From a virus, in the IMG/VR virus record IMGVR_UViG_3300017909_002551, positions 1 to 57,394 of that record: 57,394 nt of DNA; one strand, given 5' to 3'. A program made the position numbers and the translations under genes. Below, piece after piece: positions 1,032-54,295 of this stretch (position 1 is its first letter; each line of letters opens with the position of its first letter). The notes under the pieces were generated by a model. It saw nothing but the letters and a program-made list of their open reading frames with translations, was not told where the DNA came from and did no database searches.

Positions 1032-2765
1032 TTAGCCCTCCGACTTGGCTGTGAATACGCGCTCAGCTAGACCCTCGAGAACCTGTCGGTCATCGCTGTC
1101 TGCCGCATTGAGAATGGAATGTTGCAACGCCAGCTTGAGGAACGCAGACGTAGCACCGAACGACCGCTTGTATTCAACAGCCGCAAGCGCAAACGCCAGT
1201 GTGTCCCGAGGCGAGCATGCAAGGGTCACATCTGCCTGCTTGAATGCAACACGATGCTCCGTTGCGTATGCAGCAATCGAACGTGCGTCCTTCGCATCAA
1301 TCGCTGGCACCTTCTCCTGAATGAGTTGGGCTTCCTCGTCTTGGCTCATGTAGTCAACCTCGAGGTAAGGCTTGAACCTGTTAACGAATGCTGTACCCAG
1401 CGCTCGAGTACCCGAGTAGAGACCCGTCTCGTCACCCCGACCATTCGTGTTGGCCGTGGCAAACATGCGGAAGTGTGGGTGCGGTGCAATGGTGCGACCA
1501 CCATCCTCGAGAAGCATGAAGCCCTTGCCCTCAGTCAGACGCTGTAGAACAAAGCCCAAGTCAGGACGTGACGCATCAATCTCGTCGAGCAACAGCCCAC
1601 ATGGCTGTTGCATCGCCATGGGTATGATGCCCTCGACAAACTCAGTAATCGTGTGACCGTCACCGTCAGTGCGTAGCACCTCACGTCCAACCAACTCGCC
1701 ACGGGTTATGTCGCTATCGAGATTGAGACGGAAGAGCGGAAGCTGTAGACGTGCATACACCTGCTCGATAAGCGTGGTCTTGCCAGTCCCAGTGTGCCCC
1801 TTGAGCCATGGGATGCGGCCATGCGTGATAGCCAGCAACACTGGCACCAACGTCTCGCTGTCGAAAACATAGTCCTCGTCCTTCTCTGGGATGTGAGGGT
1901 GGACACCGTCCCATTCACCCACTGGCACAGGCATCTCGAACATCGTGACGTCCTTGCCAGTAATCCCGAACGCCTCATGCGCTGGCTTCATGGTCACTGT
2001 GCCAGATGGTATGGCACCGTCCGACTGCACAGACACGGGTGCCATGACCGATGTAGTGGGCATGCTAGACAGCTTTTCGCGCAACTCCTCGACTTCGCTA
2101 GTCAACGAACCCAAGTCAGTACGCATTGTTCCAATCTCGCTGACCGATGGCATGTCTGCGCTGGCCAACAGCGCGTCCAGTGCGTCAGTGACAGCACTCG
2201 ACACTGGTTGTTTCGCTGTCGGAGCCGATGTAGGTGAGCCCTTGGGGGTTGCGAATATCTCGATACCCCAAACCTTCTTGGCGTGGTTAAGCGCGATGTC
2301 GATGAACGTCTCGTTGGCTCTGCCATCTGCGTCATATGGGTTACAGCTATCCCAGTCTTCGTGTAGACCGAACACTCTGCCACTACCCCGAGTGGATGAA
2401 GCGCACACTGTTTGGTCTACGAGAGCGTGAGACCACAGCCCTGCAAGCTCAGTCAACCACCCTGGCGCGTTGTAGCTGTCAGAGTTAACGATATGAAGCG
2501 CATACATTTGCGTAACCAATGCCGTGGCATTACCAAAGCATGCCGCAATGCCAGAGGCAGATGGTCTCGTTAGCGAGATAGACTTGCTCCATGAGCCTTG
2601 CTCCCACAAACGCTCGACCCATTCACTGTTTTGCCAATTTTTAGAGGTGCCCTCGAGGCATAGGGTCAGTGCTTTACGCAATGCGCTACGCTTCTCGGAA
2701 TATTTGTCGCTTTGCAATCCTTCGATTGCCAGCACGTCTTTGATAGTTTCTTCCCAAGATTTCAT
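1032..2765 (-). CDS. cobS: CobS-like AAA+ (MoxR-type) ATPase with an N-terminal extension of about 260 aa
   Basis: Walker A GHTGTGKTT and Walker B LLLDEID. CobS-like context IPWLKGHTGTGKTTLIEQVYARLQLPLFRLNLDSDITRGELVGR and MFATANTNGRGDETGLYSGT. AGGAG RBS before the ATG at 2765. Stop is 3 nt from the cobT start. Confidence 0.85.
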   Translation of the reverse strand: MKSWEETIKDVLAIEGLQSDKYSEKRSALRKALTLCLEGTSKNWQNSEWVERLWEQGSWSKSISLTRPSASGIAACFGNATALVTQMYALHIVNSDSYNAPGWLTELAGLWSHALVDQTVCASSTRGSGRVFGLHEDWDSCNPYDADGRANETFIDIALNHAKKVWGIEIFATPKGSPTSAPTAKQPVSSAVTDALDALLASADMPSVSEIGTMRTDLGSLTSEVEELREKLSSMPTTSVMAPVSVQSDGAIPSGTVTMKPAHEAFGITGKDVTMFEMPVPVGEWDGVHPHIPEKDEDYVFDSETLVPVLLAITHGRIPWLKGHTGTGKTTLIEQVYARLQLPLFRLNLDSDITRGELVGREVLRTDGDGHTITEFVEGIIPMAMQQPCGLLLDEIDASRPDLGFVLQRLTEGKGFMLLEDGGRTIAPHPHFRMFATANTNGRGDETGLYSGTRALGTAFVNRFKPYLEVDYMSQDEEAQLIQEKVPAIDAKDARSIAAYATEHRVAFKQADVTLACSPRDTLAFALAAVEYKRSFGATSAFLKLALQHSILNAADSDDRQVLEGLAERVFTAKSEG

Positions 2766-2801
2766 TAGGTTCTCCTTGATGCTTGAGAGTTACAGTTTCC
2801 G

Positions 2802-2828
2802 TGATAGTGACACCTAACGATGTCAAAA
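2802..2828 (-). promoter_or_regulatory. 27-nt promoter/operator-like block, 24/27 identical to 43780-43806
   Basis: TGATAGTGACACCTAACGATGTCAAAA versus TGATAGTGACACCTAAAGGTGTCATAA. Contains imperfect palindrome TGACACC-TAAC-GATGTCA. On the minus strand it reads TTTTGA-16nt-TATCAC, 37 nt upstream of the cobS start. Confidence 0.5.
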
Positions 2829-2847
2829 GAGCACGGTTTGGAATGAG

Positions 2848-2865
2848 TGTCAACATTTCGTGACA
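2848..2865. promoter_or_regulatory. Inverted repeat TGTCA-N8-TGACA
   Basis: TGTCAacatttcgTGACA. The same half-sites and 8-nt spacing occur at 54316-54333. AGTGTCAACA (2846-2855) is also found at 43816-43825. Confidence 0.4.
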
Positions 2866-2882
2866 CCCAAAGTGAAACAGCC

Positions 2883-2900
2883 CGACACCTTTCGGTGCCG
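2883..2900. promoter_or_regulatory. Palindrome/hairpin CGACACC-TTTC-GGTGCCG
   Basis: Member of the ACACC-N4-GGTG family. On the minus-strand RNA it would be a 7-bp stem (one G-U pair) with a GAAA tetraloop. Confidence 0.35.
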
Positions 2901-2910
2901 AGCCGTTTCA

Positions 2911-2942
2911 AAAACCCCTGTTCCCCTTCGGGGAACCGCGCG
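2911..2942 (-). promoter_or_regulatory. Conserved hairpin element, copy 1 (7-bp stem 2920-2926/2930-2936, 3-nt loop)
   Basis: AAAACCCCTGTTCCCCTTCGGGGAACCGCGCG. A near-identical element lies at 5751-5781. It lies between the stop of 2951..3346 and the cobS start. Confidence 0.5.
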
Positions 2943-2950
2943 TATTGGGG

Positions 2951-3346
2951 CTATTTCACGCGCGTGACCACGCTGACTGTTTGCTCAGGGATACGTGCCC
3001 CTGACATGACAGCGGGATTAATGACAAACTGACGACCTTTGCAGGTCTTGGTCTTAATCAGCCTGTTGACCTCGGCGTGCATTGCCTGAGCCTTGTCCAT
3101 GAATACTTGCTGTTCGTGCAAGACCATTTGGCGCAGACGAATGCGGCGAGACATCTGGTTCAGCTTCCTGCCAATGCCCACGGCAAACGGTTGGCCGTTC
3201 ACCATGATGGTTCGTCGTACCGTCTGGCACCCATGAACGTCGGTGAGCAGGAATGTTTGTTGCCTACTCTTCCGACGCGCGGGTTCGGGTTGGGTGGTGT
3301 CGGCCTTGCGACCGAAGATGTTTGAAACCATGTCTGTGAACATCAT
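2951..3346 (-). CDS. Hypothetical protein (131 aa)
   Basis: ORF track. AAGGAAAGGA-type RBS upstream of the double ATG at 3346/3343. No motif recognised. Confidence 0.5.
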   Translation of the reverse strand: MMFTDMVSNIFGRKADTTQPEPARRKSRQQTFLLTDVHGCQTVRRTIMVNGQPFAVGIGRKLNQMSRRIRLRQMVLHEQQVFMDKAQAMHAEVNRLIKTKTCKGRQFVINPAVMSGARIPEQTVSVVTRVK

Positions 3347-3361
3347 GTATCCTTTCCTTCA

Positions 3362-3682
3362 CTAGACGTTGAGGTTGGCCAGTTCGTACTGGCCTGTTTG
3401 GATGCGCTTGCGGGTGGCCGCAGTCGCTTCACCCAAGAACCTGTTGCGATAGCGAGCCGTGGTGATGGAGTGGTTCCAGTAGTCACGGTCTAGGCGTATA
3501 GGTTGCTTGGGATAGTCCACGGGACGCACCGCAATGGTGGTTCCGTAGGACACAAATGCCGTAGACCCGTCGTCGTAGTAGTGGACGAACTGGTCTTTGG
3601 CGGGTTTGCCGGACGACGTGAGCATCGCTTCCCGTATGGGTTCGTGCTCACGCCCTGGCTTGTGGACGATGATGGTTGTCAT
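3362..3682 (-). CDS. Hypothetical protein (106 aa)
   Basis: ORF track. AGGAGG RBS. ATGA stop/start overlap with the upstream gene. Confidence 0.55.
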   Translation of the reverse strand: MTTIIVHKPGREHEPIREAMLTSSGKPAKDQFVHYYDDGSTAFVSYGTTIAVRPVDYPKQPIRLDRDYWNHSITTARYRNRFLGEATAATRKRIQTGQYELANLNV

Positions 3683-3888
3683 GGTTGGCCTCCTTTCTCA
3701 TCGTCTGGTTGAATACCGAGTGCTTCATGGACGTTAGCCATTGCTTTGCAGACTTCGTCCCATGCTCCATCGCCAAGCGAGAAGAAACTTCCAGTCCTAG
3801 CGCAGTGGAGTGCTTCCCATATCGTTTCTAGGTCACGCTCCATCGCAACCCTCTGTGTAAACGATTTCGTCCGATGGTATTTCGTCAA
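3679..3888 (-). CDS. Hypothetical protein (69 aa)
   Basis: ORF track. Translationally coupled (ATGA) to 3362..3682. Confidence 0.45.
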   Translation of the reverse strand: MTKYHRTKSFTQRVAMERDLETIWEALHCARTGSFFSLGDGAWDEVCKAMANVHEALGIQPDDEKGGQP

Positions 3889-4060
3889 GCGCTATGTCGT
3901 CGTCGAGTACCTCGACCTCTATTTCTGACGATGTCCAGTCGTGGTCGTGCCTGAGCGGTAGTTGTTTGCAAGCAATCCTGATTGCCTCCATAACATCGTC
4001 TGTGTCTGTCTCAACGTAGATTTCGGCGTTTACTCTCACCTTGTATGTTGTGGTCATCAT
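3833..4060 (-). CDS. Hypothetical acidic protein (75 aa; start trimmed to the MMTTTYK Met)
   Basis: GGAGG immediately upstream of ATGATG at 4060/4057. ATGA overlap with the stop of 4057..4341. Confidence 0.5.
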   Translation of the reverse strand: MMTTTYKVRVNAEIYVETDTDDVMEAIRIACKQLPLRHDHDWTSSEIEVEVLDDDIALDEIPSDEIVYTEGCDGA

Positions 4061-4341
4061 GACCTCCACTTTCTCGCGTATGGGTGACGCGTGCTGTATG
4101 AGCGGAAGAAGTTGCGAATACGCATGTTGTCCATCAGGGTGTTTGTTCTGAACAAAACGCGCCCGAAACGACTTTGGTTGTCGCGCCTTATCGCTTTGAC
4201 TGAGCGCCAATATGGGTTGTTGCGTAGGCTCAGCGTCAAAGACCCTGAGACACTGCGCTTGTATGCGATTGACCACTGTTCTTTGCCGTACAGCGGTCGG
4301 GTGTAGTTGAACACCCGCATATGCCTTGTGTAGTATTTCAT
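4057..4341 (-). CDS. Hypothetical basic protein (94 aa)
   Basis: ORF track. The start lies in the conserved junction GAGGAAAACCAGCAATGAAA. Confidence 0.5.
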   Translation of the reverse strand: MKYYTRHMRVFNYTRPLYGKEQWSIAYKRSVSGSLTLSLRNNPYWRSVKAIRRDNQSRFGRVLFRTNTLMDNMRIRNFFRSYSTRHPYARKWRS

Positions 4342-4355
4342 TGCTGGTTTTCCTC
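4336..4355. repeat. 20-nt gene-junction cassette, copy 1 (identical to 4545-4564)
   Basis: TTTCATTGCTGGTTTTCCTC. The minus strand reads GAGGAAAACCAGCAATGAAA, which is the C-terminal EENQQ-stop of one gene plus the RBS and ATG-AAA of the next. Confidence 0.85.
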
Positions 4356-4550
4356 TATCACTTTGTGTTTGTATCGAAGGTCTGCCTCATAGAACTCGTC
4401 AGGGTCAGAGGCGTCTGGTATCGTGCATATCTCTTCATGCGGGTGAATGTAGAGGACAGGTGTTCCGTCCTCGTGCGTTTGGGTTTTGTTGTTCTCGTCT
4501 TGAGCCGCATAAACGACTGCCCACTGAACCATGTGTGTGATGTGTTTCAT
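4338..4550 (-). CDS. Hypothetical protein (70 aa)
   Basis: ORF track. It both starts and ends in the repeated junction cassette. Confidence 0.5.
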   Translation of the reverse strand: MKHITHMVQWAVVYAAQDENNKTQTHEDGTPVLYIHPHEEICTIPDASDPDEFYEADLRYKHKVIEENQQ

Positions 4551-4564
4551 TGCTGGTTTTCCTC
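4545..4564. repeat. 20-nt gene-junction cassette, copy 2
   Basis: Identical to 4336-4355. Confidence 0.85.
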
Positions 4565-4693
4565 CCAGATTAGGTGTTTGTCTGAGAACTCACGCAGTCG
4601 GTCTACGACCTCTTCATGCGTGAACCCTCGGTTGATGGCGTTATCGCCAAAGGCAATCTCGAAGACTGCCTCGATGAACTCGTGGTCATCCAT
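4547..4693 (-). CDS. Hypothetical protein (48 aa; start trimmed to MDDHEF)
   Basis: GGAGGA RBS 6 nt upstream of the ATG at 4693. Ends EENQQ-stop in the junction cassette. Confidence 0.45.
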   Translation of the reverse strand: MDDHEFIEAVFEIAFGDNAINRGFTHEEVVDRLREFSDKHLIWEENQQ

Positions 4694-4856
4694 TGGTATC
4701 CTCCTCTCGTGTGGCATTGACCAATATCCACGCAAACTCGTGCAGCTTGCGTCGTCGTTCGTCTTCGGTGAGTTCACTGTCGGGAGGGTCGTCGACCAGC
4801 ACGTTAATGAACCCGACGATGTCCTTGAGCGTCATGCCCAGATACCTCAGCGTCAT
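4686..4856 (-). CDS. Hypothetical protein (56 aa; start set at the ATGA junction)
   Basis: The ATG at 4856 overlaps the TGA of 4853..5053. The longer GTG-initiated ORF in the track reads through the tandem duplication. Confidence 0.4.
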   Translation of the reverse strand: MTLRYLGMTLKDIVGFINVLVDDPPDSELTEDERRRKLHEFAWILVNATREEDTNG

Positions 4857-4870
4857 GCCCAGATACCCCC
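4829..4870. repeat. 21-bp tandem duplication (2 copies, 19/21 identical)
   Basis: GCGTCATGCCCAGATACCTCA followed by GCGTCATGCCCAGATACCCCC. Each copy carries a TCATG stop/start junction. Confidence 0.85.
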
Positions 4871-5053
4871 TTGCATCAAATCCCACACGTAAGCGCCGAC
4901 AATGCCAGCGACTACGTGCGTTGCGATTAGTGTTAGACCGACAAGCGTGGCAGACACGATGCGTTCACGTCTGGCCATGAGGTCGGCACGAGCGAGGACG
5001 TGCGTCATTGACGCATCGTCTCGCATGAGTTGGTCGATTGATGTTTGTCTCAT
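4853..5053 (-). CDS. Hypothetical small membrane protein (66 aa)
   Basis: AGGAG RBS. Hydrophobic stretch VSATLVGLTLIATHVVAGIVGAYVW. ATGA coupling at both ends. Confidence 0.45.
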   Translation of the reverse strand: MRQTSIDQLMRDDASMTHVLARADLMARRERIVSATLVGLTLIATHVVAGIVGAYVWDLMQGGIWA

Positions 5054-5184
5054 TGGTCGTCTCCTGTGATGAGGCGTGGTTGATTTGCCATGACGAATGC
5101 GAATATCTCCATCGTGTCAGCGTCAGTGGCTGGCACTTCGTCGAAGTCGTCGTCATACGGGTTTGTGTTGTTGTCGATTGCCAT
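5050..5184 (-). CDS. Hypothetical acidic mini-protein (44 aa)
   Basis: AGGAGGA RBS before the ATG at 5184 (MAIDNNTNPYDDDFDE...). The long upstream extension in the ORF track crosses a terminator. Confidence 0.4.
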   Translation of the reverse strand: MAIDNNTNPYDDDFDEVPATDADTMEIFAFVMANQPRLITGDDQ

Positions 5185-5262
5185 TGGAAATCCTCCTGTG
5201 ATGGCGTTGTTGGTCGTTCGTGATTGGCGTTCGTGTGTGTGCAACGACCAGTGAAAGCACAC

Positions 5263-5292
5263 AAAAAAAACCCCACACCCGAAGGTGTGGGG
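5263..5292 (-). terminator. Rho-independent terminator (minus strand)
   Basis: The minus strand reads CCCCACACC-TTCG-GGTGTGGGG followed by T8. It lies 20 nt after the stop of 5312..5677. Confidence 0.8.
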
Positions 5293-5311
5293 TTCTGATT
5301 GGCGCGCGCGA

Positions 5312-5677
5312 TTACTTGTTGCGATTGGCCAGCTCGGTTGTGAGCATCGCGACCATGCCCGCGAGGTCAGCATCGCTCATGGCCGAGACGCCTTGAGCGA
5401 CCGAAGCCTGAGGCTTCGCCTTAGGCTTCGCCTTGGGCTTGGACGCCTTCGGCGTCTTGGACGCCTCAAACGCGGCAACGTAGTCGGGCTTGCCTTCGGC
5501 AAGCTGCGCGATAAACGCCTGCGTGCGCTTGGCCTTGCCTGAGCCAGCCTTCGCCTTCGCGAGACGTTCTTTCAGAACGTCTACGGCCTCGGCGATGAGG
5601 TTCTCACGCGCGCCAGCGCTTGCGGTTTCGATGATGGTTTGGATGTCGCGCAAAGATGCGCCTGCGAAATTGCTCAT
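5312..5677 (-). CDS. Hypothetical Lys/Ala-rich protein (121 aa)
   Basis: AGGAG RBS before the ATG at 5677 (MSNFAGASLRD...). KPKAKPKAKP low-complexity stretch. Followed by a terminator. Confidence 0.6.
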   Translation of the reverse strand: MSNFAGASLRDIQTIIETASAGARENLIAEAVDVLKERLAKAKAGSGKAKRTQAFIAQLAEGKPDYVAAFEASKTPKASKPKAKPKAKPQASVAQGVSAMSDADLAGMVAMLTTELANRNK

Positions 5678-5750
5678 GGAAAATCTCCTTTGTGAGCGTG
5701 ACTGCGAGCGGGACTCCGCAAGCAGGGAGCAGGCAGACTGCTCCACTCCA

Positions 5751-5781
5751 TAAACCCCTTGTTCCCTTCGGGAACCGTGCG
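5751..5781 (-). promoter_or_regulatory. Conserved hairpin element, copy 2 (stem 5761-5766/5770-5775, loop TTC)
   Basis: TAAACCCCTTGTTCCCTTCGGGAACCGTGCG aligns with 2911-2942. It heads the leader of the leftward operon, 85-100 nt upstream of the ATG at 5677. Confidence 0.5.
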
Positions 5782-5788
5782 GACGACC
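5781..5788 (+). promoter_or_regulatory. GGACGACC motif copy (intergenic)
   Basis: Exact 8-mer at the left edge of the divergent intergenic region. Confidence 0.25.
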
Positions 5789-5913
5789 GCCCACGCGCGT
5801 GTGTGTAACGTACTGAAATGGTTACACTTGGCTCTCAGACCTTATCGTTCGCACGTGTGGTGAGCACGCGTGAGAAAATAGCCCGAAAATCACCCCTTGA
5901 AGGGGAGCGAAAC

Positions 5914-5934
5914 CCGCAGATTTCTGCGGTTTTT
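5914..5934 (+). terminator. Orphan terminator-like hairpin (plus strand) in the divergent intergenic region
   Basis: CCGCAG-ATTT-CTGCGG followed by T5. There is no plus-strand gene upstream of it. Confidence 0.4.
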
Positions 5935-5970
5935 GGCGGGGTTGTGTCATTTTTGTGCCGCGTATTGGCA

Positions 5971-5979
5971 GGGGGGGGG
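5971..5979. repeat. G9 homopolymer
   Basis: GGGGGGGGG about 90 nt upstream of the first virion-block gene. Confidence 0.9.
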
Positions 5980-6068
5980 CATACCCGCCGTCCGCCGCGC
6001 GGTCATGGTCTAATCAACGTCACCAGGGGGTCTCGAGTAGCGAGCAAATTTGAAAATGTTGGGAAACA

Positions 6069-6539
6069 ATGGCTAAAACAAAGTTCACAAACCGCGTAAG
6101 CGTGCAAACAGCGACAGGACAAGTCGCTTTATCACCAAATCAGGTGGCCAATCTGCGCGGACAGATAGCCAGAAAAATGGAAAATCACATAGTTCTGGCC
6201 GATGAAGTCATCAAAGGCCACATAGAGTGGACGCCTACGCAGGCACGGGTGTTTTCAAACCTACTTAATAAGGTAATCCCCGACCTTTCCGCCTCATTCC
6301 ACCAACACGAGCACAGTCACCGTGCTCTCAATGAAATGTCTCGCGAGGAGCTGGAGCGCATTGCCTCTGGGGTGGACGAGATTATTGATGCAGAACCTAT
6401 AGAGGAGCATAACGATGACGGAAAAGAACAAGGGCATAGTGAGCAATCCGATAGCGGAGGCAGTGCCGACCAAAATCTCGACAGCGGAGCTGGGCAAGGC
6501 AATGGGGCAACTCGACCTCAGTTCCGTGCCGAAACATAA
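6069..6539 (+). CDS. Possible small terminase subunit / DNA-binding protein (156 aa)
   Basis: First gene of the rightward block, two genes before terL. Acidic C-terminal tail. The assignment is positional only. Confidence 0.35.
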   Translation: MAKTKFTNRVSVQTATGQVALSPNQVANLRGQIARKMENHIVLADEVIKGHIEWTPTQARVFSNLLNKVIPDLSASFHQHEHSHRALNEMSREELERIASGVDEIIDAEPIEEHNDDGKEQGHSEQSDSGGSADQNLDSGAGQGNGATRPQFRAET

Positions 6540-6657
6540 ACACACGCAGGCGGTAATGGACCACTTCTTCCGTGTCATGGCAGAGAATGTCATGGACAAG
6601 AAGTTGGCAGACGAAATGCGAGGCTCACGCATTCTCCGTAAGGGCCTCGACACATGA
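6415..6657 (+). CDS. Hypothetical protein (80 aa), coupled to terL
   Basis: GAGGAG RBS before the ATG at 6415. ATGA overlap with the terL start at 6654. Overlaps the 3' 125 nt of 6069..6539 in another frame. Confidence 0.45.
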   Translation: MTEKNKGIVSNPIAEAVPTKISTAELGKAMGQLDLSSVPKHKHTQAVMDHFFRVMAENVMDKKLADEMRGSRILRKGLDT

Positions 6658-8282
6658 GTGTCTCCCGTTCGGCAGCGGCCAAACACCTACTCAAGCTGAA
6701 GGACGCAGAGACCAGCTTCGAGGGCTTTGTAAGAATTGTGGAGCCTACCTTCACCCTGGCCGACTTCCAGCTTGACCTCATCAGAAAGCTAGACAAGCTG
6801 GAGAAGGGGGAGCTTGTAGACGACCAGGGCCGTCCTGCGCGCAACCTTCTGGTCACAATGCCGCCTCGGCACGCCAAATCTACATTCTCAACTGTCCTAT
6901 TCCCCGCCTACTTCATGGCTCGGAACCCGACCAGATACATACTGTCATGCTCGTACAACGCCATGCTGGCATCTGACTTTGGTCGCCAGGTTCGCGACAA
7001 GGCAAGTGGCGTAGAAGTCCAGCAGGCTTTCCCAGACTTCAAGATGTCCAGCGACAGTAGGGCAGCCGATGTCTGGCGCACAGAAATGGGCGGCGCATAC
7101 TTTGGCGTGGGTATAGGCGGCACAACAACTGGCCGACCAGCCAACCTTCTCATCGTCGATGACCCAGTAAAATCCAGAGAGGACGCGGAGTCCGCTACCC
7201 AGCGAAATAAAATCTGGGACTTCTACACGGCAGCTCTATCCACTCGTCTACAGCCAGACGGCCAGGGGCAAGCACCTAGCCAAATCGTTATCCTCACACG
7301 CTGGCACCCCGACGACCTGGCTGGTCGCTTAATGCGGACGCAAGATTGGAAGGATGGTCTGTGGATGCACCTTGATTACCCAGCCATCAAAACGGTCGCG
7401 GGCAAAAAGGTGTCTCGCCGCAGCCTTCCCAAGGAACACCCCATGTATGTCGAGCCTGGTGAGCTGTCCAACCTGGCAAAAGGAAAACGCTACCACCAAG
7501 AGACCAAAGAGGTAGCTCTGTGGCCAGAGCGCTTTCCCCTAGACGAGTTGCGTAGACGTGAACGTCTCAACCCGCGCGACTTTGCATCCCTCTATCAGCA
7601 GCAGCCATACATTGAGGGTGGCAACATCCTGAAGTCAGAGTGGTGGAGCTACTACCCAGAAGACGTGAACCCCACAAACTTCCAGACGGTAATCATTGCG
7701 GCGGATACCGCCTTCAAAAAAACCGAGACGGCTGACTTCTCTGTAGCCATCGTTGCTGGGCTCACCCAGGAAGGCGACATATACATCGTAGACGTGCACC
7801 GTGGACGCTGGGACTACCCTGAGTTGCGCACCAAGCTCATCAATATCAACGCCACATGGCGCGGCAGAGGCTTGCGCGCCCTCTATGTTGAGGACAAGGC
7901 ATCTGGCCAGTCCATCATCCAAGACCTCCGCCGCGAGTCCGGCATTGCTGTCGTCCCCTACAAGGTAGTCAACGACAAGGTGTCTCGCATCAATGGCATC
8001 ACTCCACTCATTCAAGGTGGCAGGGTCTTCCTACCAGAGAAGGCAACGTGGCTAGACGAGTTCGTAGAGGAATGCGTCGCATTCCCAAGTGGCAAGCATG
8101 ATGACCAGGTCGATGCCCTCTCCATGGCTGTGGACGTTCTCTCACGACAATCAGTTACCCCTGAGCAAATATTCGGGTCCCTCGAGGCTGGCAACTCTCT
8201 GATGCAAGAAACCAATGCTAGGCGTGGCTCTATATCCGAGGCTCTTGGCAGAGATATTTTCAAGGGTTGGGGCGAGCTATAA
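6654..8282 (+). CDS. terL: Terminase large subunit
   Basis: ATPase motifs PPRHAKST (Walker A-like), LLIVDDP (Walker B) and LTRWHPDDL. RNaseH-like nuclease half VIIAADTAFKK...YVEDKASGQS...GKHDDQVDALS. Confidence 0.9.
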   Translation: MSVSRSAAAKHLLKLKDAETSFEGFVRIVEPTFTLADFQLDLIRKLDKLEKGELVDDQGRPARNLLVTMPPRHAKSTFSTVLFPAYFMARNPTRYILSCSYNAMLASDFGRQVRDKASGVEVQQAFPDFKMSSDSRAADVWRTEMGGAYFGVGIGGTTTGRPANLLIVDDPVKSREDAESATQRNKIWDFYTAALSTRLQPDGQGQAPSQIVILTRWHPDDLAGRLMRTQDWKDGLWMHLDYPAIKTVAGKKVSRRSLPKEHPMYVEPGELSNLAKGKRYHQETKEVALWPERFPLDELRRRERLNPRDFASLYQQQPYIEGGNILKSEWWSYYPEDVNPTNFQTVIIAADTAFKKTETADFSVAIVAGLTQEGDIYIVDVHRGRWDYPELRTKLININATWRGRGLRALYVEDKASGQSIIQDLRRESGIAVVPYKVVNDKVSRINGITPLIQGGRVFLPEKATWLDEFVEECVAFPSGKHDDQVDALSMAVDVLSRQSVTPEQIFGSLEAGNSLMQETNARRGSISEALGRDIFKGWGEL

Positions 8283-12463: not shown

Positions 12464-12790
12464 ATGACTGTTCGCTACGACCAAATTCATTTGTATGCGA
12501 AGCCAGGTCAGGCAGCCTGCGCCACAATCAGACAGTGGCTGGACGGCAACGGCATCGCATATACAAACCTAGACTACGCCGACCCAACAGAGACGTTGGC
12601 GGCACTATCCACATGGTTTCAAGATGAAGAGGGCAACGACATTGCTTTTGCTGACACTCCTGTTCTTGTTTATGACAGGTTGATGTGGGAGGCAGACGAC
12701 GGGTCTGATAGATATGCCCATCGTCACTACGTCACAGACGTCGAAGATTTACCAGACGATTTCACCACTCTTGCCGAACAGGTGTCCTAA
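12464..12790 (+). CDS. Glutaredoxin/NrdH-fold-like protein lacking the CxxC pair (108 aa)
   Basis: IHLYAKPGQAACATIRQWLDGNGIAYTNLDY...TPVLVYD resembles the Grx beta-alpha-beta layout and cis-Pro region, but only one Cys is present. TAATG overlap with the next gene. Confidence 0.35.
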   Translation: MTVRYDQIHLYAKPGQAACATIRQWLDGNGIAYTNLDYADPTETLAALSTWFQDEEGNDIAFADTPVLVYDRLMWEADDGSDRYAHRHYVTDVEDLPDDFTTLAEQVS

Positions 12791-14580
12791 TGCCGTTACT
12801 TGGGGTCTCATTAAGAGCAGACCCCCTGTTTCCTGGGGGTCAACAAACTTTTACATCGGACGGGACGTTCAATGTGCCTCCTGGCATATCGAAAGTTACT
12901 GTTCGCGCTAAAGGTTTGAACGGCACGGCAGGCTCACCAGGAAGCCCAGGGGCCGAAGGCAGTCAGGGTGCTGTTGGCAATCCAGGCAACCCAGGTACTA
13001 ACGGCGCTGGTGGAGCAGCCGGAGCGGCAGGCAATGACGGCAACCCTGGAAACCCAGGCAACAATGGTGCTGCGGGCAACGGCGGTTCAGCAGGCAACGC
13101 AGGAAACCCAGGAAACTCAGGCAATCCAGGTAACAATGGTGCTGCTGGTAGTGGTGGCGCGGGAGGCAATGCGGGCAACTCGGGTGCACCAGGAAACTCA
13201 GGCACCGCTGGTCGAGGCGGTGGTGGAGGCGGTGGAGGCCAAGGGGGTGGCTTTAAGGCGGCAGGTCCAGCGGGCAGTCCAGGAAACGCCGCCCCATCCG
13301 GCGGTAACGGTGGTGCAGGTGGCACTAGCAATTCTGCAACCGGAGTCCCTGGAAGTGCAGGTAATGTTGGAAATTTTGGTGCCAATGGAAACACGGGCGC
13401 TGGCGGCAACGGAGCAAACAGCGGCAGCGCTGGAAACCCAGGAAACCCTGGGGCAAGCGGCAGCGCAGGAACAGCAGGCAATCCTGGAACAGGAGCAACC
13501 TCTGGTAATCCTGGAGCCGCTGGCTCAGCAGGAACTGCGGGGAATGCAGGGACGGGAGCGGGGTCTGGTGGTGCTGGAAACCCAGGTGCCGCTGGAAGTG
13601 ATGGAACCACTGGGGCCCAGGGGGCCGCTGGCGCAGATGGCGCAACAGGAGCTAGTGGAACGCCAGGGGCTGACTCAGCCTTTGGAAGCTATTTTACCTT
13701 CTCAGGTGGCGCAGGTGGCGCTGGCGGAGCGGGCGGTTCTGGTGGTGTAGGTGGCCCTGGCGGAACTGGGGGTAACGCGGGGGCCGCTGGTAACGACGGA
13801 AACCCTGGCAATCCTGGGACCGACGGGGTCGCAGGCAATGGCGGAGCTGCTGGCAACAGTGGGAACCCAGGCAATGACGGTACTAACGGCGCTGGTGGCA
13901 ACGGTGGCGCAGCAGGTAACGCAGGTAACGCAGGTAACGCTGGCAACTCAGGAAACCCTGGAAACAACGGAAACGGCGGCAGTGGTGGTTCAGGAGGAAA
14001 CCGTGGCGGCGGCGGTAATGGCGGTGGAGGCGCTTCAGGCGGCGTGAATGGCGCTAATGGAAACATTGGTAGCCCAGACGGGAGTGCTGGCACAGGATTT
14101 GGCACTGGCGGCACTGGCGGCGATGGAGCCAGTTTTGGCATCGGCGGCACCGGAGGCCGTGGTGGTCGTGGCGGTAATGGTGGCGGCGGCTCAGGCGGTA
14201 ACGCAGGTGCAAACGGCAGCGATGGGAACCCTGGAAACAACGGTAGCGGCGCGGGTGCTGGAGGCGCAGGAAACGCAGGAAATCCTGGGGCCGCAGGAAA
14301 TAGCGGCAACGCAGGAACGGGGGCCACTGATGGCAACCCAGGCACGGCTGGTTCTGCGGGTAACGCTGGAACTTCTGGGTCAGGGGCTACGTCAGGAAAC
14401 CCTGGGAGCGCGGCTCCGTCAACATGGGCAGGAAAGTCAGGTTCGGCTGGTGGTGCAGGGGCTCCAGGCGGGACGACTGACTATGCAGACCAGGTTATAA
14501 GAATTACCCAAGCCCAGCAGGCGATTGCTCTTACAGTCGCCTCTGGCACTGAAATGACGATTACCTTCGAGCGACAATGA
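12790..14580 (+). CDS. Collagen-like Gly-X-Y / glycine-rich fibre protein (596 aa)
   Basis: More than 35 uninterrupted Gly-X-Y triplets from about residue 45 (GTAGSPGSPGAEGSQGAVGNPGNPGTNG...). Many GNP/GSP/GAP triplets, poly-Gly/RGG islands, and non-repetitive N- and C-terminal ends. Confidence 0.85.
   Translation: MPLLGVSLRADPLFPGGQQTFTSDGTFNVPPGISKVTVRAKGLNGTAGSPGSPGAEGSQGAVGNPGNPGTNGAGGAAGAAGNDGNPGNPGNNGAAGNGGSAGNAGNPGNSGNPGNNGAAGSGGAGGNAGNSGAPGNSGTAGRGGGGGGGGQGGGFKAAGPAGSPGNAAPSGGNGGAGGTSNSATGVPGSAGNVGNFGANGNTGAGGNGANSGSAGNPGNPGASGSAGTAGNPGTGATSGNPGAAGSAGTAGNAGTGAGSGGAGNPGAAGSDGTTGAQGAAGADGATGASGTPGADSAFGSYFTFSGGAGGAGGAGGSGGVGGPGGTGGNAGAAGNDGNPGNPGTDGVAGNGGAAGNSGNPGNDGTNGAGGNGGAAGNAGNAGNAGNSGNPGNNGNGGSGGSGGNRGGGGNGGGGASGGVNGANGNIGSPDGSAGTGFGTGGTGGDGASFGIGGTGGRGGRGGNGGGGSGGNAGANGSDGNPGNNGSGAGAGGAGNAGNPGAAGNSGNAGTGATDGNPGTAGSAGNAGTSGSGATSGNPGSAAPSTWAGKSGSAGGAGAPGGTTDYADQVIRITQAQQAIALTVASGTEMTITFERQ
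13912..13938. repeat. 9-bp perfect tandem repeat x3 in the collagen-like gene
   Basis: GCAGGTAAC x3, encoding (AGN)3. Confidence 0.85.
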
Positions 14581-15281
14581 TATTTGGAAACCCTAAAGTT
14601 ACTTTCACCACATACCCTGACCTTTATGGAATTATTCCAGAGCCCATACCTGCAAGGTCTGTTCTCCCTGATTGGTTTAAGAAACTCAAGTCATTCACCA
14701 GTGAAGACCTAGAGTCCCCAACTAAGTGGCCGACGCGTAGCATCAAGAGATGTCCCCCTGTATTAGACGCAATGGTTAGCGGTTGGCTTCTGCCAACACC
14801 CTCGGAGATTGAGGTTGTTATCAACGAGGATGGCAGCGGCGTAGAGTGGAAAACAGACCTAAACTACTCGGTTATTGAGCCCCACTCTGTAGACCAAATT
14901 AAAGGGCACCCGTCTCTCCCCAAGTTGCCCCTCAAAATAATGAATTACTGGCACATGAAGACACCGCCTGGTTGGTCTACGCTTTTTGTAAGCCCCTTTA
15001 ACAGACAAAACAAATACCACGAACCGATGGCTGGAGTTGTCGAAACAGACAAATACTTGGAGTTTGTCAACTTCCCCAGCTTCTTCAAGCCGACGGGGAC
15101 GACCTTCACTTTACCTCGAGGTTATCCTGTCGTTCAGGCCATACCCTTTAAGAGGGGCATGGGCAGGAAAGCTGATATACGAGCGATGACCCCCAAGGAG
15201 TCTGATGCCCTTGAGCTACTACGCAATAAGCGCACCAGCCGCCCAGGTATTTATCGCGAAACTATGTGGGAAAGAAAATGA
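14577..15281 (+). CDS. Conserved hypothetical protein, possibly cupin-fold (234 aa)
   Basis: ATGA overlap with the collagen-like gene. Motifs SIKRCPPVLDAMVSGWLLP, MNYWHMKTPPGWSTLFVSPFNR and AGVVETDKYLEFVNFP resemble a phage family I recall only vaguely. Confidence 0.35.
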   Translation: MIFGNPKVTFTTYPDLYGIIPEPIPARSVLPDWFKKLKSFTSEDLESPTKWPTRSIKRCPPVLDAMVSGWLLPTPSEIEVVINEDGSGVEWKTDLNYSVIEPHSVDQIKGHPSLPKLPLKIMNYWHMKTPPGWSTLFVSPFNRQNKYHEPMAGVVETDKYLEFVNFPSFFKPTGTTFTLPRGYPVVQAIPFKRGMGRKADIRAMTPKESDALELLRNKRTSRPGIYRETMWERK

Positions 15282-15532
15282 GTAGTGTCAATTACACAAT
15301 CGTAGCCTTTGATGATGTCACACTCGAGTATGTGGTTGCATTCAACGACGATAGAATCAATGTTCCTGCTGTTGTTGTTGACAACGCAGTAGACGCTACA
15401 AAGACAAAGGAAGCTATCGCATCCGCAATTAAAGTTCGTTTATCTGCCCGCTCCCCTCAGGCATCTCCATCGAATTATGTTGACCTTGTCGGCGCAAGCG
15501 CTGCGGTGGATACCTCTTCAGAAGAGGTTTAA
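15278..15532 (+). CDS. Hypothetical protein (84 aa)
   Basis: The ATG at 15278 overlaps the upstream TGA (ATGA). Confidence 0.5.
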   Translation: MSSVNYTIVAFDDVTLEYVVAFNDDRINVPAVVVDNAVDATKTKEAIASAIKVRLSARSPQASPSNYVDLVGASAAVDTSSEEV

Positions 15533-15537
15533 TTCAA

Positions 15538-16230
15538 ATGGCAGTTGATGAAATTACTGATGTCGAGACTCGTCCTGACGGGATTATTCTAACGAAGGTT
15601 GATTATCCCAGCCCCGAGACAATGGTTTGGACACGGGACAAACATCCTGTAGACATTAGTCGAGCACAATATCATCCAGAAACCACCAGTCTTATTAAAG
15701 ACGCCTCCCCTTGGTTTTTCTATACGCCCAGCCCTGACGCATCCGAAGACACACACCTACGCTTCAGCTACCCCATTTTACAGAATGGTGTTAGCGCAAA
15801 CGAAGTAGCGGAGCATTTTGTTTCAAGCGCAGATGTTTTTGACGCTGGCCTAGACCCCGAGACTGGCGTGTTTCAAATCTTGTTAGACTCTTCTGTGTGG
15901 TGGAGGCAAACAGAATGGACGCGAGTATCACCGCCATACTTTCCTCTTTGGTTGCGGCTAGACCAAGAAGTCTTGGTTTCTGGATTGCGACTAGCCTGCA
16001 CGGTGCCGAAAGATAACGACCTCTCTTGGCACCGTTTTGCCCTGCCTGTTTTTGCTGGCAGTTCGGCAGAGGTGCACAGGTCGGGCAATGACTGCTACCT
16101 CATCTCGCTTGAGAGTGACTTGGCCTGCGGAGATAGGACGCTCAGTAAATACAAACTCATCAAACTCTCATCTCCAAGTGTAACCGTCACCCCAACTGAG
16201 GACACAATCCTTTTGAAAGTCTATAGATGA
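15538..16230 (+). CDS. Hypothetical protein (230 aa)
   Basis: ORF track. ATGA coupling to the downstream oxygenase gene. Confidence 0.55.
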   Translation: MAVDEITDVETRPDGIILTKVDYPSPETMVWTRDKHPVDISRAQYHPETTSLIKDASPWFFYTPSPDASEDTHLRFSYPILQNGVSANEVAEHFVSSADVFDAGLDPETGVFQILLDSSVWWRQTEWTRVSPPYFPLWLRLDQEVLVSGLRLACTVPKDNDLSWHRFALPVFAGSSAEVHRSGNDCYLISLESDLACGDRTLSKYKLIKLSSPSVTVTPTEDTILLKVYR

Positions 16231-16769
16231 TACTCGACCCGCACTTCTGGATATTCCCGAGCATCATCGACAAAGAACTCTGCGACCTCATTATAAAACG
16301 GGGCAATGAGATGGAGACTGAGCCAGGTCAGGCTGGCGGGGAAGTTAAGTTAGACAAACGCAAATCTCATATTGCGTGGTTTGACCAAAACGACTGGGTC
16401 TCGGGGCTTTGTTACCACTACACAAACTTGGCTAACGAGCAGGCATGGGACTTTGATATCACTCACCCAGATGGCGTGCAGTTCACAAACTATGAGGTCG
16501 GTGAGTATTACGAGCCTCACACAGACACGCATCGGCTCGAAGATGGCATGCGCAAACTTAGCATTGTCATACAACTGAACTCACCAGACGACTATGAGGG
16601 CGGCGAGTTCACGTTTTTTGACGGAGACAAGCCCTGGTCTCCAGAAAATTTTGAACAACAGGGCTCAGTTCTCGTCTTCCCTAGCTTCCTGTTACACCAA
16701 GTAAAACCCGTCACCTCTGGCAAACGACACAGCATTGTTAGCTGGTTTGTTGGCCCTCAAATGAAGTAA
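16227..16769 (+). CDS. 2OG-Fe(II) oxygenase, prolyl 4-hydroxylase (P4Hc)-type (180 aa)
   Basis: YYEPHTDTH (HxD), RKLSIVIQLNSPDDYEGGEF, LLHQVKPV (distal His) and GKRHSIVSW (2OG-binding Arg). Confidence 0.8.
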   Translation: MILDPHFWIFPSIIDKELCDLIIKRGNEMETEPGQAGGEVKLDKRKSHIAWFDQNDWVSGLCYHYTNLANEQAWDFDITHPDGVQFTNYEVGEYYEPHTDTHRLEDGMRKLSIVIQLNSPDDYEGGEFTFFDGDKPWSPENFEQQGSVLVFPSFLLHQVKPVTSGKRHSIVSWFVGPQMK

Positions 16770-16807: not shown

Positions 16808-17056
16808 ATGGACACAAAGTCACCAGAATTAAGGCAACTACTTGAGGAGGCCGCTGAGGCTGGGGCCAAGCGCGCTCTTGCTGACGTAGGGTTATCGGAT
16901 GACCACGCCATCTACGATGTCCACGAACTCCGCAACCTCCTCGATAGCTGGCGCGAAACCAAGACCGCTATCGGCCAAACATTCATCAAGGTATTAACAG
17001 TAACAATCCTCGCCTCCATTGCCGCCGCCATAGGCCTCAATATTTACTCAGACTAA
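16808..17056 (+). CDS. Hypothetical protein with C-terminal TM helix (82 aa)
   Basis: C-terminal FIKVLTVTILASIAAAIGLNIY. Confidence 0.5.
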   Translation: MDTKSPELRQLLEEAAEAGAKRALADVGLSDDHAIYDVHELRNLLDSWRETKTAIGQTFIKVLTVTILASIAAAIGLNIYSD

Positions 17057-17667
17057 TGAAAGAACTTATCAAGTCAGAGCTTCGTCTCTGGGCTGTAAAA
17101 ACTCTTGCCCCACCCAACCCGCACTTTAACGGTCTTCCGGCTTGCCCTTTCGCTGCGCAAGCCTTCGCCAGGGACCGTGTAGACGTTCGCGTAGGCTTCG
17201 GCTGGCAGATGGCTGGTGTCGAAGACACCGCTCTGCGTTATCCGAGAAACAAGGACGTTGTCATACACGCAGAGCTCAACCCCACCATGTCTCCGTCACG
17301 TCTACAACACGAGGTATGCCGCCTCAATGACGCGCTCAGCAAAAAAAATATCTGGTGCATTGGTTTCCATCCGGACGACCCAGAGCCAGAATTTGTGGAA
17401 GATGAAGATGGCTTTGAGAATATTGTCGACGAGCCATACGCAATGGTCTTTGTGCAAAGACTAACCGAACTGGACGACGCAAGCAGGGTTCTTGAGGCAC
17501 AAAGGTATTACACAAAGGTTGAGGTGGAGCTGAAGGTTGCCCTCTACCGTAGACGAAAAGCTAGAGAGGAATATGACAATGGCAATGGGACGCGGAAAAT
17601 CAAAGGCAGGACGCGGCAAGCGGAAAGCTCAAAAAGCATTCAAGCCAGTAATGGCAGGGAAAGCTAA
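17056..17667 (+). CDS. Hypothetical protein (203 aa)
   Basis: ORF track. Overlapping stop/start (TAATG) with the upstream gene. Basic C-terminal tail. Confidence 0.55.
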   Translation: MKELIKSELRLWAVKTLAPPNPHFNGLPACPFAAQAFARDRVDVRVGFGWQMAGVEDTALRYPRNKDVVIHAELNPTMSPSRLQHEVCRLNDALSKKNIWCIGFHPDDPEPEFVEDEDGFENIVDEPYAMVFVQRLTELDDASRVLEAQRYYTKVEVELKVALYRRRKAREEYDNGNGTRKIKGRTRQAESSKSIQASNGRES

Positions 17668-19877: not shown

Positions 19878-19906
19878 TCGGCATAAAATTTTTACAAGGG
19901 CGGGAC

Positions 19907-45959: not shown

Positions 45960-46470
45960 GATAATAGACAACGCTTACTCTGCTCGTGACAGAGATGACA
46001 TGTTTGAGTTTGTGCGTAATAGCAAATACAGAATTGGGTGGGCTGACAGAAATTTTAATGACGTAAACGGGCAGCGTCGAATTATGTATAGCCCCTTTAC
46101 GTTAGACGAAGTTGAAGACATGGGGGTTTTGCGCTTGCACAACAGCCCACGTATTGACGAGCTCGTTCGGGGGAGAACCCCAACTCAGAACATCATCAAT
46201 CTGGCCGAACCCTCAAACGTCTTTTGCCCCCATACTCACGGAGACCTAGACACTCTGTTGTATTATTGCAACACGCGATGGGCACCTGAGTGGGCTGGAG
46301 AAACAATCATATATTCTGAGCATGATTACGAAGCTGAACATGCTGTGTCCTTCAAGCCTGGTCGAGTGCTGTGGCTAAACGCAGGCGTCATGCACAGTGT
46401 GCGTCCCCCAAGTCAGGCGGCTCCTGATTACAGGTTTACGTTTGCTGCGTTCTTTTCGACGCAGGACTAG
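45952..46470 (+). CDS. 2OG-Fe(II) oxygenase-like protein (172 aa)
   Basis: CPHTHGDLDTLLYYCN (HxD), GETIIY, GRVLWLNAGVMHSVRPP (distal His) and RFTFAAFF (Arg). Confidence 0.55.
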   Translation: MYEIIDNAYSARDRDDMFEFVRNSKYRIGWADRNFNDVNGQRRIMYSPFTLDEVEDMGVLRLHNSPRIDELVRGRTPTQNIINLAEPSNVFCPHTHGDLDTLLYYCNTRWAPEWAGETIIYSEHDYEAEHAVSFKPGRVLWLNAGVMHSVRPPSQAAPDYRFTFAAFFSTQD

Positions 46471-53864: not shown

Positions 53865-53866
53865 AA

Positions 53867-54295
53867 TTACTCCCTGTACAATTTACGGTTTGGGTCAGAG
53901 CGCAGAGAACCTCCTAAGTACTCCTCAGCCCAGTTCTTTGGGAGACCGCCAGCCATGGCCTTGTATTGGTCGCTGGTGACTGCCTCGATTTCGGTGAAGG
54001 CACACATAACAATCTGTGAACGTGTAGACACACCATACTTCTTGGCTATGCCCCGTACATGTACCTTCGCCGTGTTCTCAGAAACCCCCAACCGTTTGGC
54101 AATCTCTGCATTGCTCTTGCCCTTCATCAGCATCTGCAATGACACGTGTTGCTTAGGTGTGAGTTTCGCGAGAATAATCTCACTTGCGTGGATTTGTTGT
54201 GATGGACTTCCCATTGTCAGCCTGTCCATCTGGCGCTCGAGGGACTCAATACGCCCCTCCAGCTTGGCTACCCTTTCGCTTGTAACTTTCTCCAT
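53867..54295 (-). CDS. LuxR/GerE-type HTH transcriptional regulator (142 aa)
   Basis: LTPKQHVSLQMLMKGKSNAEIAKRLGVSENTAKVHVRGIAKKYGVSTRSQ. N-terminal coiled coil. The stop is 3 nt from the int start. Confidence 0.8.
   Translation of the reverse strand: MEKVTSERVAKLEGRIESLERQMDRLTMGSPSQQIHASEIILAKLTPKQHVSLQMLMKGKSNAEIAKRLGVSENTAKVHVRGIAKKYGVSTRSQIVMCAFTEIEAVTSDQYKAMAGGLPKNWAEEYLGGSLRSDPNRKLYRE

Follow-up and report, generated by a model that had tools for sequence, protein, structure and literature searches.

Does a tailed phage hydroxylate its own fibres? The question is raised by a late gene block on IMG/VR record IMGVR_UViG_3300017909_002551, a viral DNA of 57,394 nucleotides analysed over its whole length (positions 1 to 57,394, hereafter the window). 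There, a long collagen-like gene lies in one string with the gene of a small oxygenase of the prolyl 4-hydroxylase (P4H) type, and an earlier note, made from the letters alone, had seen in this pair a dedicated collagen hydroxylation module. Our best reading takes the region as an accessory fibre module, carried in the late operon of a temperate marine podovirus of the CRP-810 type. That this module serves fibre-associated protein hydroxylation is a possibility put forward tentatively; the narrower claim, that hydroxylation of prolines in the Y position of Gly-X-Y triplets stabilises a triple helix, seems to us doubtful. Coordinates of the block and its surroundings are collected in Table 1, and loci from other genomes are cited by L numbers.

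The oxygenase passed the PF13640 profile with 65.3 bits (cut-off 27; 1e-17) and matched phrog_61 at 2e-40. The complete P4Hc/2-oxoglutarate (2OG)-Fe(II) signature announced by the earlier note was recovered: H98, D100 (as H98-x-D100) and H157 were invariant among 47 homologues, and R167 was at least 90% conserved. When the family profile was compared with the PDB, the highest scores were obtained with the PKHD-type protein Sbal_3634 (3e-17) and PiuC (5e-14), over the C-terminal half only. Full-length matches were the P4Hs of B. anthracis, Chlamydomonas and PBCV-1, Pseudomonas PPHD and a Dictyostelium prolyl hydroxylase, and further matches were P3H1 (partial), HIF prolyl hydroxylase and the ectoine hydroxylase EctD (both weak). 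An AlphaFold2 (AF2) model of high confidence (pLDDT 95.3) had PPHD as its best Foldseek match (E 5e-11). Next came the algal P4H, PBCV-1 vCPH, PiuC and PHD2, with E values that differed about tenfold at most. Nearly all of the top 50 matches were PPHD, Cr-P4H, vCPH, PiuC/3DKQ or PHD2, together with one unnamed 2OG oxygenase, at query TM-scores (TMq) of 0.62-0.76. The nearest NCBIfam models were of the YbiX type (PRK05467), again over the C-terminal half and all under their cut-offs (best NF003974, 63.6 bits vs 143). From its sequence and its predicted structure, the enzyme is assigned to the protein prolyl-hydroxylase class, within which these searches do not separate enzymes of the collagen type from those of the PHD or PKHD type.

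Could the substrate be a nucleic acid? The predicted nucleotide-hydrolase-like (dUTPase) fold of the neighbouring DUF6065 protein, described below, would fit with a DNA or RNA repair or modification enzyme. We nevertheless regard such a function as highly improbable: the profile and the model, which the earlier note had wished to see checked against nucleic-acid and small-molecule dioxygenases, lead to PKHD-type enzymes and protein prolyl hydroxylases, the PDB profile and structure matches listed include nothing of the AlkB, TET or JBP type, Pfam Oxygenase-NA reaches only E 0.042, and the gene is part of a structural operon and stands apart from the replication module. The 2OG-Fe(II) oxygenases of CRP-810-type phages carry the label 'DNA repair' in the literature (PMC11288001), for which neither sequence nor structure gave support here.

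The collagen-like protein contains 221 Gly among its 596 residues (37%), and about 520 aa are in strict triplet periodicity. More than 35 uninterrupted Gly-X-Y triplets had been announced; two runs of that length were found (38 and 36 triplets), besides about ten shorter ones, and Pfam Collagen (PF01391) was passed with 43.3 bits against a cut-off of 27.2. Collagen P4Hs act on X-Pro-Gly, and Pro indeed lies almost always in Y, as had been stated (26 times in the runs, against once in X), but it fills only 26 of the 164 Y positions, Gly and Ala being more frequent there, and the 'dozens' of N-P-G motifs come down to 19. Such a Y-over-X bias is unusual for prokaryotic collagen-like proteins, since those of bacteria normally have Pro in X and Thr in Y (PMC8968730). 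Conservation was measured on an alignment of seven orthologues. Gly columns were 90% conserved with the triplet register kept, the conserved segments at the N terminus (~41 aa) and the C terminus (~35 aa) were 71-94% identical, and non-Gly positions of the core 41-55%. The bias was constant, with about 12-31 Pro in Y vs 1-4 in X. Homologues of this protein were difficult to collect: Gly-X-Y words swamped the search, leaving 3 usable matches, and tblastn against phages gave none, probably because of low-complexity masking. The protein is probably a distal fibre or a receptor-binding part.

Whether it forms a collagen triple helix is another matter. Its composition is poor for a stable one: Pro amounts to 6% and charged residues to about 5%, Gly is common in X and Y, Asn and Ser are abundant, and glycine-rich motifs (GGG, GAG, GNG, GGX repeats) occur together with poly-Gly at aa 143-154 and around 404-413. 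The protein may instead be a polyglycine-II (PGII) lattice, that is, an expanded glycine-rich receptor-binding domain of stacked PGII/polyproline-II (PPII) strands, as in S16 gp38, cyanophage Pam3 gp24 or the snow-flea antifreeze protein, with the two conserved beta segments, N- and C-terminal, packed against each other. We consider this alternative quite possible, if short of probable. It agrees with the composition and with highly conserved termini around drifting X and Y positions. The homologue at locus L084 has the same N-terminal segment and only short Gly-X-Y runs, and T4-like fibres encoded 5' of a DUF6065/2OG gene pair end in a Gly_rich_2-type domain (PF21722, 23.6 bits vs a cut-off of 24.3). 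Long Gly-X-Y runs with Pro before Gly are also present in the snow-flea antifreeze protein. The phage domains of this type, S16 gp38, Pam3 gp24 and Pfam Gly_rich_2, resemble the collagen-like protein in having about 37-39% Gly, poly-Gly and a place at the distal end of fibre modules, and a related domain is found in the fibres 5' of the DUF6065/2OG pair; in Pam3 gp24, a 39%-Gly domain with GGGGxGG motifs forms such a lattice (PMC9608196). These domains are, however, only about 125-150 aa long, and known PGII lattice domains consist of short Gly motifs with loops between, whereas here Gly recurs strictly at every third residue over 114 and 108 residues, in a register common to the orthologues, the Collagen profile is passed, and PF21722 does not match the protein at E <= 0.1. 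Neither Pro spacing nor DNA repeats decide between triple helix and PGII lattice: a 21-residue repeat of Pro spacing was weak (<= 0.22) and came first among the lags in no more than 4 of the 7 orthologues, and the DNA tandem repeats are short and degenerate. The alternative concerns the fold only and is compatible with any substrate of the oxygenase.

The two genes belong to one tightly packed string. Stop/start junctions were found where the earlier note had placed them, as TAATG at 12788 between p108 and the collagen-like open reading frame (ORF), whose start is at 12790, and as ATGA overlaps at 14577, 15278 and 16227; a further TAATG occurs at 17054. The module sits between the gene of the proximal tail fibre and the scaffold and capsid genes. 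The proximal fibre, 673 aa long, matches PHROG tail-fibre families (e.g. phrog_21412 at 3.5e-31), is 76-84% identical among relatives, and over its N-terminal ~420 aa is 41-45% identical to the 1252-aa fibre of CRP-810. Because no strong terminator-like hairpin was found from the portal gene to position 19896, co-transcription of the whole late block is plausible.

Next to the collagen-like gene lies that of a DUF6065 protein (PF19541, 28.4 bits for a cut-off of 26.6; phrog_7084, 7.5e-48). A cupin had been suspected here, and this did not hold: the AF2 model (pLDDT 91.7) has only dUTPases as its top Foldseek matches in the PDB (E 4e-5, target TM-score (TMt) 0.75), and in BFVD uncharacterised phage proteins followed by dUTPases. 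No cupin is among the top 50 structural matches listed, and a single His is invariant; invariant residues include K57, C59, H103, Q107 and D158. On the model, DUF6065 thus has a dUTPase-like fold. A profile alignment with dUTPases by hhalign was weak (P 1.2e-3, probability 20%) and paired motifs II-IV in order, for instance GvVDTDkY with GvIDSDY and VQAIPF with IAQlI; the Gly-rich C-terminal motif V of dUTPases is missing by eye, and a sequence-profile search of DUF6065 against the PDB gave no match. As an aside on dUTPases, positions 127132-127587 of MG065691.1 (Campylobacter phage A11a) encode a protein that agrees with the Dut of E. coli at 100% identity, and this stretch may be E. coli sequence within a phage record.

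The remaining small proteins, p108, p88 and p230, are restricted to this phage clade. For p108 the earlier note had proposed a glutaredoxin fold lacking a CxxC pair; the pair is indeed replaced by Q-A-A-C, but the fold finds only sub-threshold matches (E 0.004-1), nearly all of them ArsC/Spx, NrdH, Grx or Trx (Uxx-star glutaredoxin-like 0.004, Spx/ArsC 0.005, ArsC-related 3gkx 0.04, NrdH/Grx/Trx 0.3-1). The protein is conserved in the clade at 38-84% identity. p88 has no known family or relative outside the clade. No Pfam, PHROG, NCBIfam or PDB match was obtained for p230, a 13-member profile included, which gave non-significant Ig-like matches only (E 0.16-0.6); the protein has only 13 representative clusters among 1.84 billion proteins.

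Is the association kept in relatives? In ten IMG/VR loci with capsids 89-95% identical, the order p108, collagen-like protein, DUF6065, p88, p230, 2OG oxygenase, p82, p203 was found wherever the contig was long enough, with module proteins 28-84% identical. The full set was also kept in the deeper relative L116 (oxygenase 49%, DUF6065 55% identical), whose collagen-like ORF of ~594 aa has Pro 3 times in X and 25 times in Y. Linkage of the collagen-like and oxygenase genes, for which conservation in related genomes had been proposed as a check, is therefore kept in all of the about 10 uncultured relatives recovered; it fails in the nearest isolate, Roseobacter phage CRP-810, from which everything from p108 to p203 is missing. 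At the same place CRP-810 has OmpA-like, lysozyme and other genes, and no Gly-X-Y run above two triplets. Compared as DNA with 50,697 phage records, the block gave no match. Concerning annotation, public gene calls for L116 split the collagen-like gene (3818-5293) into three spurious ORFs in alternate frames, of 110, 140 and 229 aa and rich in E/T/Q/A, the true Gly-X-Y frame being missed; collagen-like phage genes may for this reason be under-counted in automatic annotations.

Outside the clade, ten oxygenase homologues on long contigs of other phage lineages were examined for their neighbours, and most lay directly 3' of tail-fibre genes. On L109 the gene directly 5' encodes a 697-aa Collagen+Peptidase_S74 fibre with 57 triplets; a second collagen fibre lies 3 kb 3', with glycosyltransferase (GT1/GT2) and methyltransferase genes between. 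On L111 the product of the second gene 5' of the oxygenase is a collagen-like protein of 1138 aa and 208 triplets, in runs of 103 and 105. Peptidase_S74 fibres lie beside the oxygenase on L119 and L121, and a Collar-domain fibre on L114. On L064, from the T4-like DUF6065 lineage, a ~420-aa fibre with a terminal Gly_rich_2-type domain is followed by a ~150-aa ORF. The L084 contig, unrelated to the phage of the window, carries a homologue of the collagen-like protein (N-terminal hidden Markov model, E 9.5e-8) between two 2OG genes and a DUF6065 gene. Finally, on a 66.8-kb contig, the oxygenase gene overlaps the gene of a 620-aa glycosyltransferase of the GT25 + PLOD type; enzymes of these types glycosylate hydroxylysine in animal collagen. 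Taken together, these fibre-gene neighbourhoods favour a fibre-related protein modification.

Some details of these loci were recorded as well. The GPT/GFT-type fibres of L109 (3891-5984 and 9930-12561) carry Peptidase_S74 chaperone domains and have Pro in X only, and the long protein of L111 (186-3602) is almost without Pro in its two runs, X being S/F/D and Y being T/I/Q. The oxygenase homologue of the 66.8-kb contig (JGI, P0107; short copy L113) is 39% identical and overlaps the start of the glycosyltransferase gene, in which Glyco_transf_25 and PLOD-type domains were recognised; a 1327-aa protein is encoded upstream.

A second type of neighbourhood was revealed by a census of DUF6065, in which the genes from 59 loci gave 25 clusters when grouped at 60% identity. 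Fifteen of these are viral, and in 10 of them DUF6065 is abutted or overlapped by a strong 2OG gene; in two further ones, this clade and L116, the 2OG gene lies ~0.9 kb away. The nine cellular clusters have no 2OG gene nearby. The pair was seen in a T4-like marine myophage lineage, on a 160-kb contig (order reversed) and on a 141-kb T4-like contig, just before gp13/gp14. No long Gly-X-Y gene was found near any of these pairs, or near those of L104, so that the oxygenase can do without a collagen repeat. Among oxygenases from outside the clade, the nearest one, 47% identical, is likewise linked to DUF6065.

Other contexts of DUF6065 are more varied. On L104 (1-6700), three DUF6065-like and four 2OG genes lie close by, each of the three DUF6065 genes abutting a 2OG gene. 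On the chromosomes of Marivibrio halodurans and Hwanghaeella sp. (L094 and L099, both Rhodospirillales; about 1500-6700), a DUF6065 homologue ends an ABC-importer operon composed of an SBP_bac_8 binding protein, an ABC ATPase and two permeases, with no 2OG oxygenase nearby. Such a setting is a hint of small-molecule chemistry in the DUF6065 family. Homologues ~38% identical occur in 49 records of haloarchaeal tailed viruses (Hafunaviridae), and in Halophage HF1 (L088, 4902-5786) a lone DUF6065 gene lies between ribonucleotide reductase and virion protein genes. That marine phages and archaeal viruses share DUF6065 was unexpected. None of the HF1 and cellular contexts explains why DUF6065 and 2OG genes are paired in phages.

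The census bears on another explanation, in which a mobile accessory cassette, made up of the two genes for the oxygenase and DUF6065, acts on a host protein or a small molecule and merely sits in the variable slot behind the fibre genes. The pairing in T4-like and other lineages lacking a long Gly-X-Y gene, the multiple copies of L104, the ABC-importer operons, the spread of the oxygenase family in marine phages (368 phage records matched) and the absence of the block from CRP-810 all suit such a cassette, as does the enzyme itself: its best structural match is PPHD, the EF-Tu hydroxylase, and its best sequence matches are the PKHD-type YbiX/PiuC, with which it has the Arg of the 2OG site in common. 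This explanation seems to us only a little less likely than hydroxylation of the fibre. Against it stand the consistent place of the oxygenase gene in late structural operons, directly after fibres, in several unrelated phage types, the recurrence of collagen-type glycosyltransferase and collagen-like fibre neighbours, and the retention of the full block with its collagen-like gene at deep divergence within the clade. A host-takeover enzyme, moreover, we would more often expect among early genes.

How, then, does hydroxylation of the fibre stand? It is suggested by the predicted fold and active site of the oxygenase, which resemble those of protein prolyl hydroxylases; by translationally coupled genes with no terminator-like site inside the block; by the retention of the block in about 10 contigs at the divergence given above; by the 26:1 Pro bias, which would present the enzyme with collagen P4H sites; and by the homologues 3' of fibres on L109, L111, L119, L121 and L064, together with the GT25/PLOD overlap and the L084 arrangement. 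Several observations weigh against it. The residue that binds the C5 carboxylate of 2OG, 10 residues after the distal His, is Arg167, as in PKHD and PHD enzymes, and the Lys of collagen-type P4Hs is lacking; the aligned residue is Lys in the B. anthracis enzyme, and Lys (K493) holds this position in human C-P4H. In the Pro columns, 47% of orthologue residues are still Pro, a figure that does not exceed the conservation of the other non-Gly positions; the replacements are mostly Ala and Ser, and the Y-Pro counts of orthologues vary from 14 to 31. Collagen-like fibres next to other oxygenase homologues have Pro only in X (L109) or almost none (L111), so Y-position prolyl hydroxylation is not a general rule. 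Across phages, the steadiest partner of the oxygenase is DUF6065, not the collagen repeat, as the 10 of 15 clusters without a long Gly-X-Y gene illustrate. The absence of the block from CRP-810 and the possible PGII fold count in the same direction, and accessory genes are known to gather in the slot 3' of fibre genes, where proximity may be passive. CRP-810, the DUF6065 partnership, the Pro pattern elsewhere, the drift of Pro, Arg167, the possible PGII fold and the failure of the cupin suggestion together weaken the idea of a dedicated collagen prolyl hydroxylase, as originally proposed. Collagen hydroxylation by the phage oxygenase is plausible, and unproven.

If the fibre is nevertheless hydroxylated, we infer the following course. 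The oxygenase would act in the host cytoplasm, on fibre chains that have just been made and have yet to fold and assemble, with the X-Pro-Gly prolines as best candidate sites; DUF6065 may act with it or alongside it, and hydroxylation would tune the stability or the surface chemistry of the fibre. A bolder version, which we judge improbable, makes of DUF6065 and the oxygenase an undescribed two-enzyme system of fibre maturation, widespread in marine phages: the oxygenase would hydroxylate Gly-rich or collagen-like fibres, and DUF6065, which may bind nucleotides, would carry out a nucleotide-dependent second step on the hydroxylated site, for example the transfer of a sugar or another group. 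In one lineage, a GT25/PLOD-type glycosyltransferase follows the oxygenase in a like overlapping-gene arrangement.

Known enzymes provide partial parallels. The closest viral one is PBCV-1 vCPH (PDB 5C5T), also a small, single-domain, virus-encoded 2OG oxygenase of the P4H family and a top structural neighbour of the phage enzyme (E 4e-10, TMq 0.71; full-length profile match 6e-10). It differs in coming from a giant eukaryotic virus and in being only about 20% identical; its known substrates are Pro-rich repeats, collagen-type P4Hs bind the 2OG C5 carboxylate by Lys where the phage enzyme has Arg, and we know of no DUF6065 partner of vCPH. The P4H of B. anthracis (PDB 3ITQ/5HV0; full-length profile match 7e-12) is a prokaryotic member of the family from a host with the collagen-like protein BclA. 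The repeats of BclA are GPT, with Pro in X, and to our knowledge its hydroxylation in vivo is not established. In vitro, the enzyme hydroxylates (Pro-Pro-Gly)n and favours the Y-position Pro (PMC8968730). Unlike the phage enzyme, it has Lys in the column of R167 and its gene is not in an operon with the putative substrate.

Pseudomonas putida PPHD (PDB 4J25/4IW3) is the best structural match (E 5e-11, TMq 0.74, 24% identity), a small bacterial enzyme that also uses Arg at the 2OG site; in contrast to the phage oxygenase it is chromosomal, has no fibre context and acts on EF-Tu, a host translation factor. The PKHD-type proteins YbiX, PiuC and Sbal_3634 (PDB 3DKQ, 9GHL) are the best sequence matches and have the motif H-x-V-x-P-V-x-x-G-x-R in common with the phage enzyme, whose homologues are labelled accordingly by JGI and NCBIfam. 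They are, however, matched over the C-terminal half only and under the NCBIfam cut-off, and are cellular, iron-regulated and with no established substrate; a literature search on the substrate of PiuC gave nothing decisive. The 2OG oxygenases of marine cyanophages and pelagiphages (PHROG 61), of which Synechococcus phage copies are 35-41% identical, often occur in several copies per genome, while the gene of the window belongs to a podovirus and to a conserved block that also encodes a long Gly-X-Y protein.

The window represents the nearly complete genome of a temperate podovirus-like phage. Nearest to it among isolates is CRP-810 (57,692 bp), with 79% identity in the portal, 76% in the capsid and 62% in the terminase. 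Other genes encode a giant protein of the virion type, a Prim-Pol/helicase and an integrase. The giant ORF (3059 aa; 31223-40402, + strand) has no Pfam match at E <= 0.001 and presumably corresponds to what was reported from CRP-810 as 'internal virion protein D'. A temperate lifestyle is suggested by a tyrosine integrase and by a regulator of the LuxR/GerE type; with a CobT-like VWA protein and an AAA_5 ATPase, these were noted at 52857-54295, 56345-57340 and 1032-2765, all on the - strand. The VWA protein and the ATPase lie at opposite ends of the window and would be neighbours if the genome were circularly permuted. A second 2OG-Fe(II) oxygenase, of 172 aa (45952-46470, + strand), starts in overlap with the stop of the Prim-Pol/helicase gene. 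It reaches PF13640 at 2.3e-5, just under the cut-off, and the NCBIfam FlmC-family 2OG oxygenase model at 1.6e-12, also under cut-off; it is unrelated to the 180-aa enzyme, with no BLAST similarity between them, and is matched by two phage records only, CRP-810 not being one of them.

Table 1. Position of the late block and of surrounding genes in the window
Feature	Position	Strand	Basis or remark
Large terminase	6654-8282		Gene in window
Portal, SU10-type	8321-10234		Gene in window
Proximal tail-fibre protein, 673 aa	10440..12461	+	PHROG tail-fibre families; directly 5' of module
p108, small	12464..12790	+	Possible thioredoxin/glutaredoxin-like fold, without CxxC
Gly-rich collagen-like protein, 596 aa	12790..14580	+	Gly-X-Y runs, Pfam Collagen
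First uninterrupted Gly-X-Y run, 38 triplets	12913..13254	+	aa 42-155, poly-Gly at its end
Second uninterrupted Gly-X-Y run, 36 triplets	13708..14031	+	aa 307-414, GAG/GGX repeats at start
DUF6065 protein, 234 aa	14577..15281	+	PF19541, phrog_7084, model; predicted dUTPase-like beta fold
p88	15278..15532	+	84 aa from ATG at 15278; clade-specific
p230	15538..16230	+	Clade-restricted; stop overlaps oxygenase start
P4H-family (PKHD-type) 2OG-Fe(II) oxygenase, 180 aa	16227..16769	+	PF13640, phrog_61, model
Predicted catalytic residue H98	16518-16520	+	
Predicted catalytic residue D100	16524-16526	+	
Predicted catalytic residue H157	16695-16697	+	
Predicted catalytic residue R167	16725-16727	+	
p82 and p203	16808..17667	+	Final two genes of the block absent from CRP-810; p82 with hydrophobic C-terminal stretch (by eye), p203 phrog_28122
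Scaffold-like protein	18867-19877		Gene in window
Major capsid protein	20056-21228		Gene in window

Giant viruses are known to have collagen together with P4H, B. anthracis has a P4H, and P4H-type oxygenases are well known, and unexplained, in marine phages. In the literature found, no paper links these phage oxygenases to phage fibres or to DUF6065, and nothing decisive was found on DUF6065 or on phage collagen with prolyl hydroxylase. Few unexplained 'auxiliary' genes are as common in marine phages as those of P4H-type 2OG-Fe(II) oxygenases, usually labelled as DNA repair or nitrogen-stress related. The present locus offers a testable alternative, namely that oxygenases encoded behind fibre genes may modify virion fibres. 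Should hydroxyproline be borne by a tailed-phage fibre, collagen-type post-translational chemistry would extend from eukaryotes and giant viruses to phages, and an enzymatic layer would be added to the determination of host range. Were the two-enzyme system real, it would provide a function for the 'orphan' 2OG-Fe(II) oxygenases that abound in ocean phages. DUF6065 is now tied to a predicted fold and to a fixed enzymatic partner, which gives a route to its function. The locus is of value mainly because it opens the function of an abundant phage gene family to testing.

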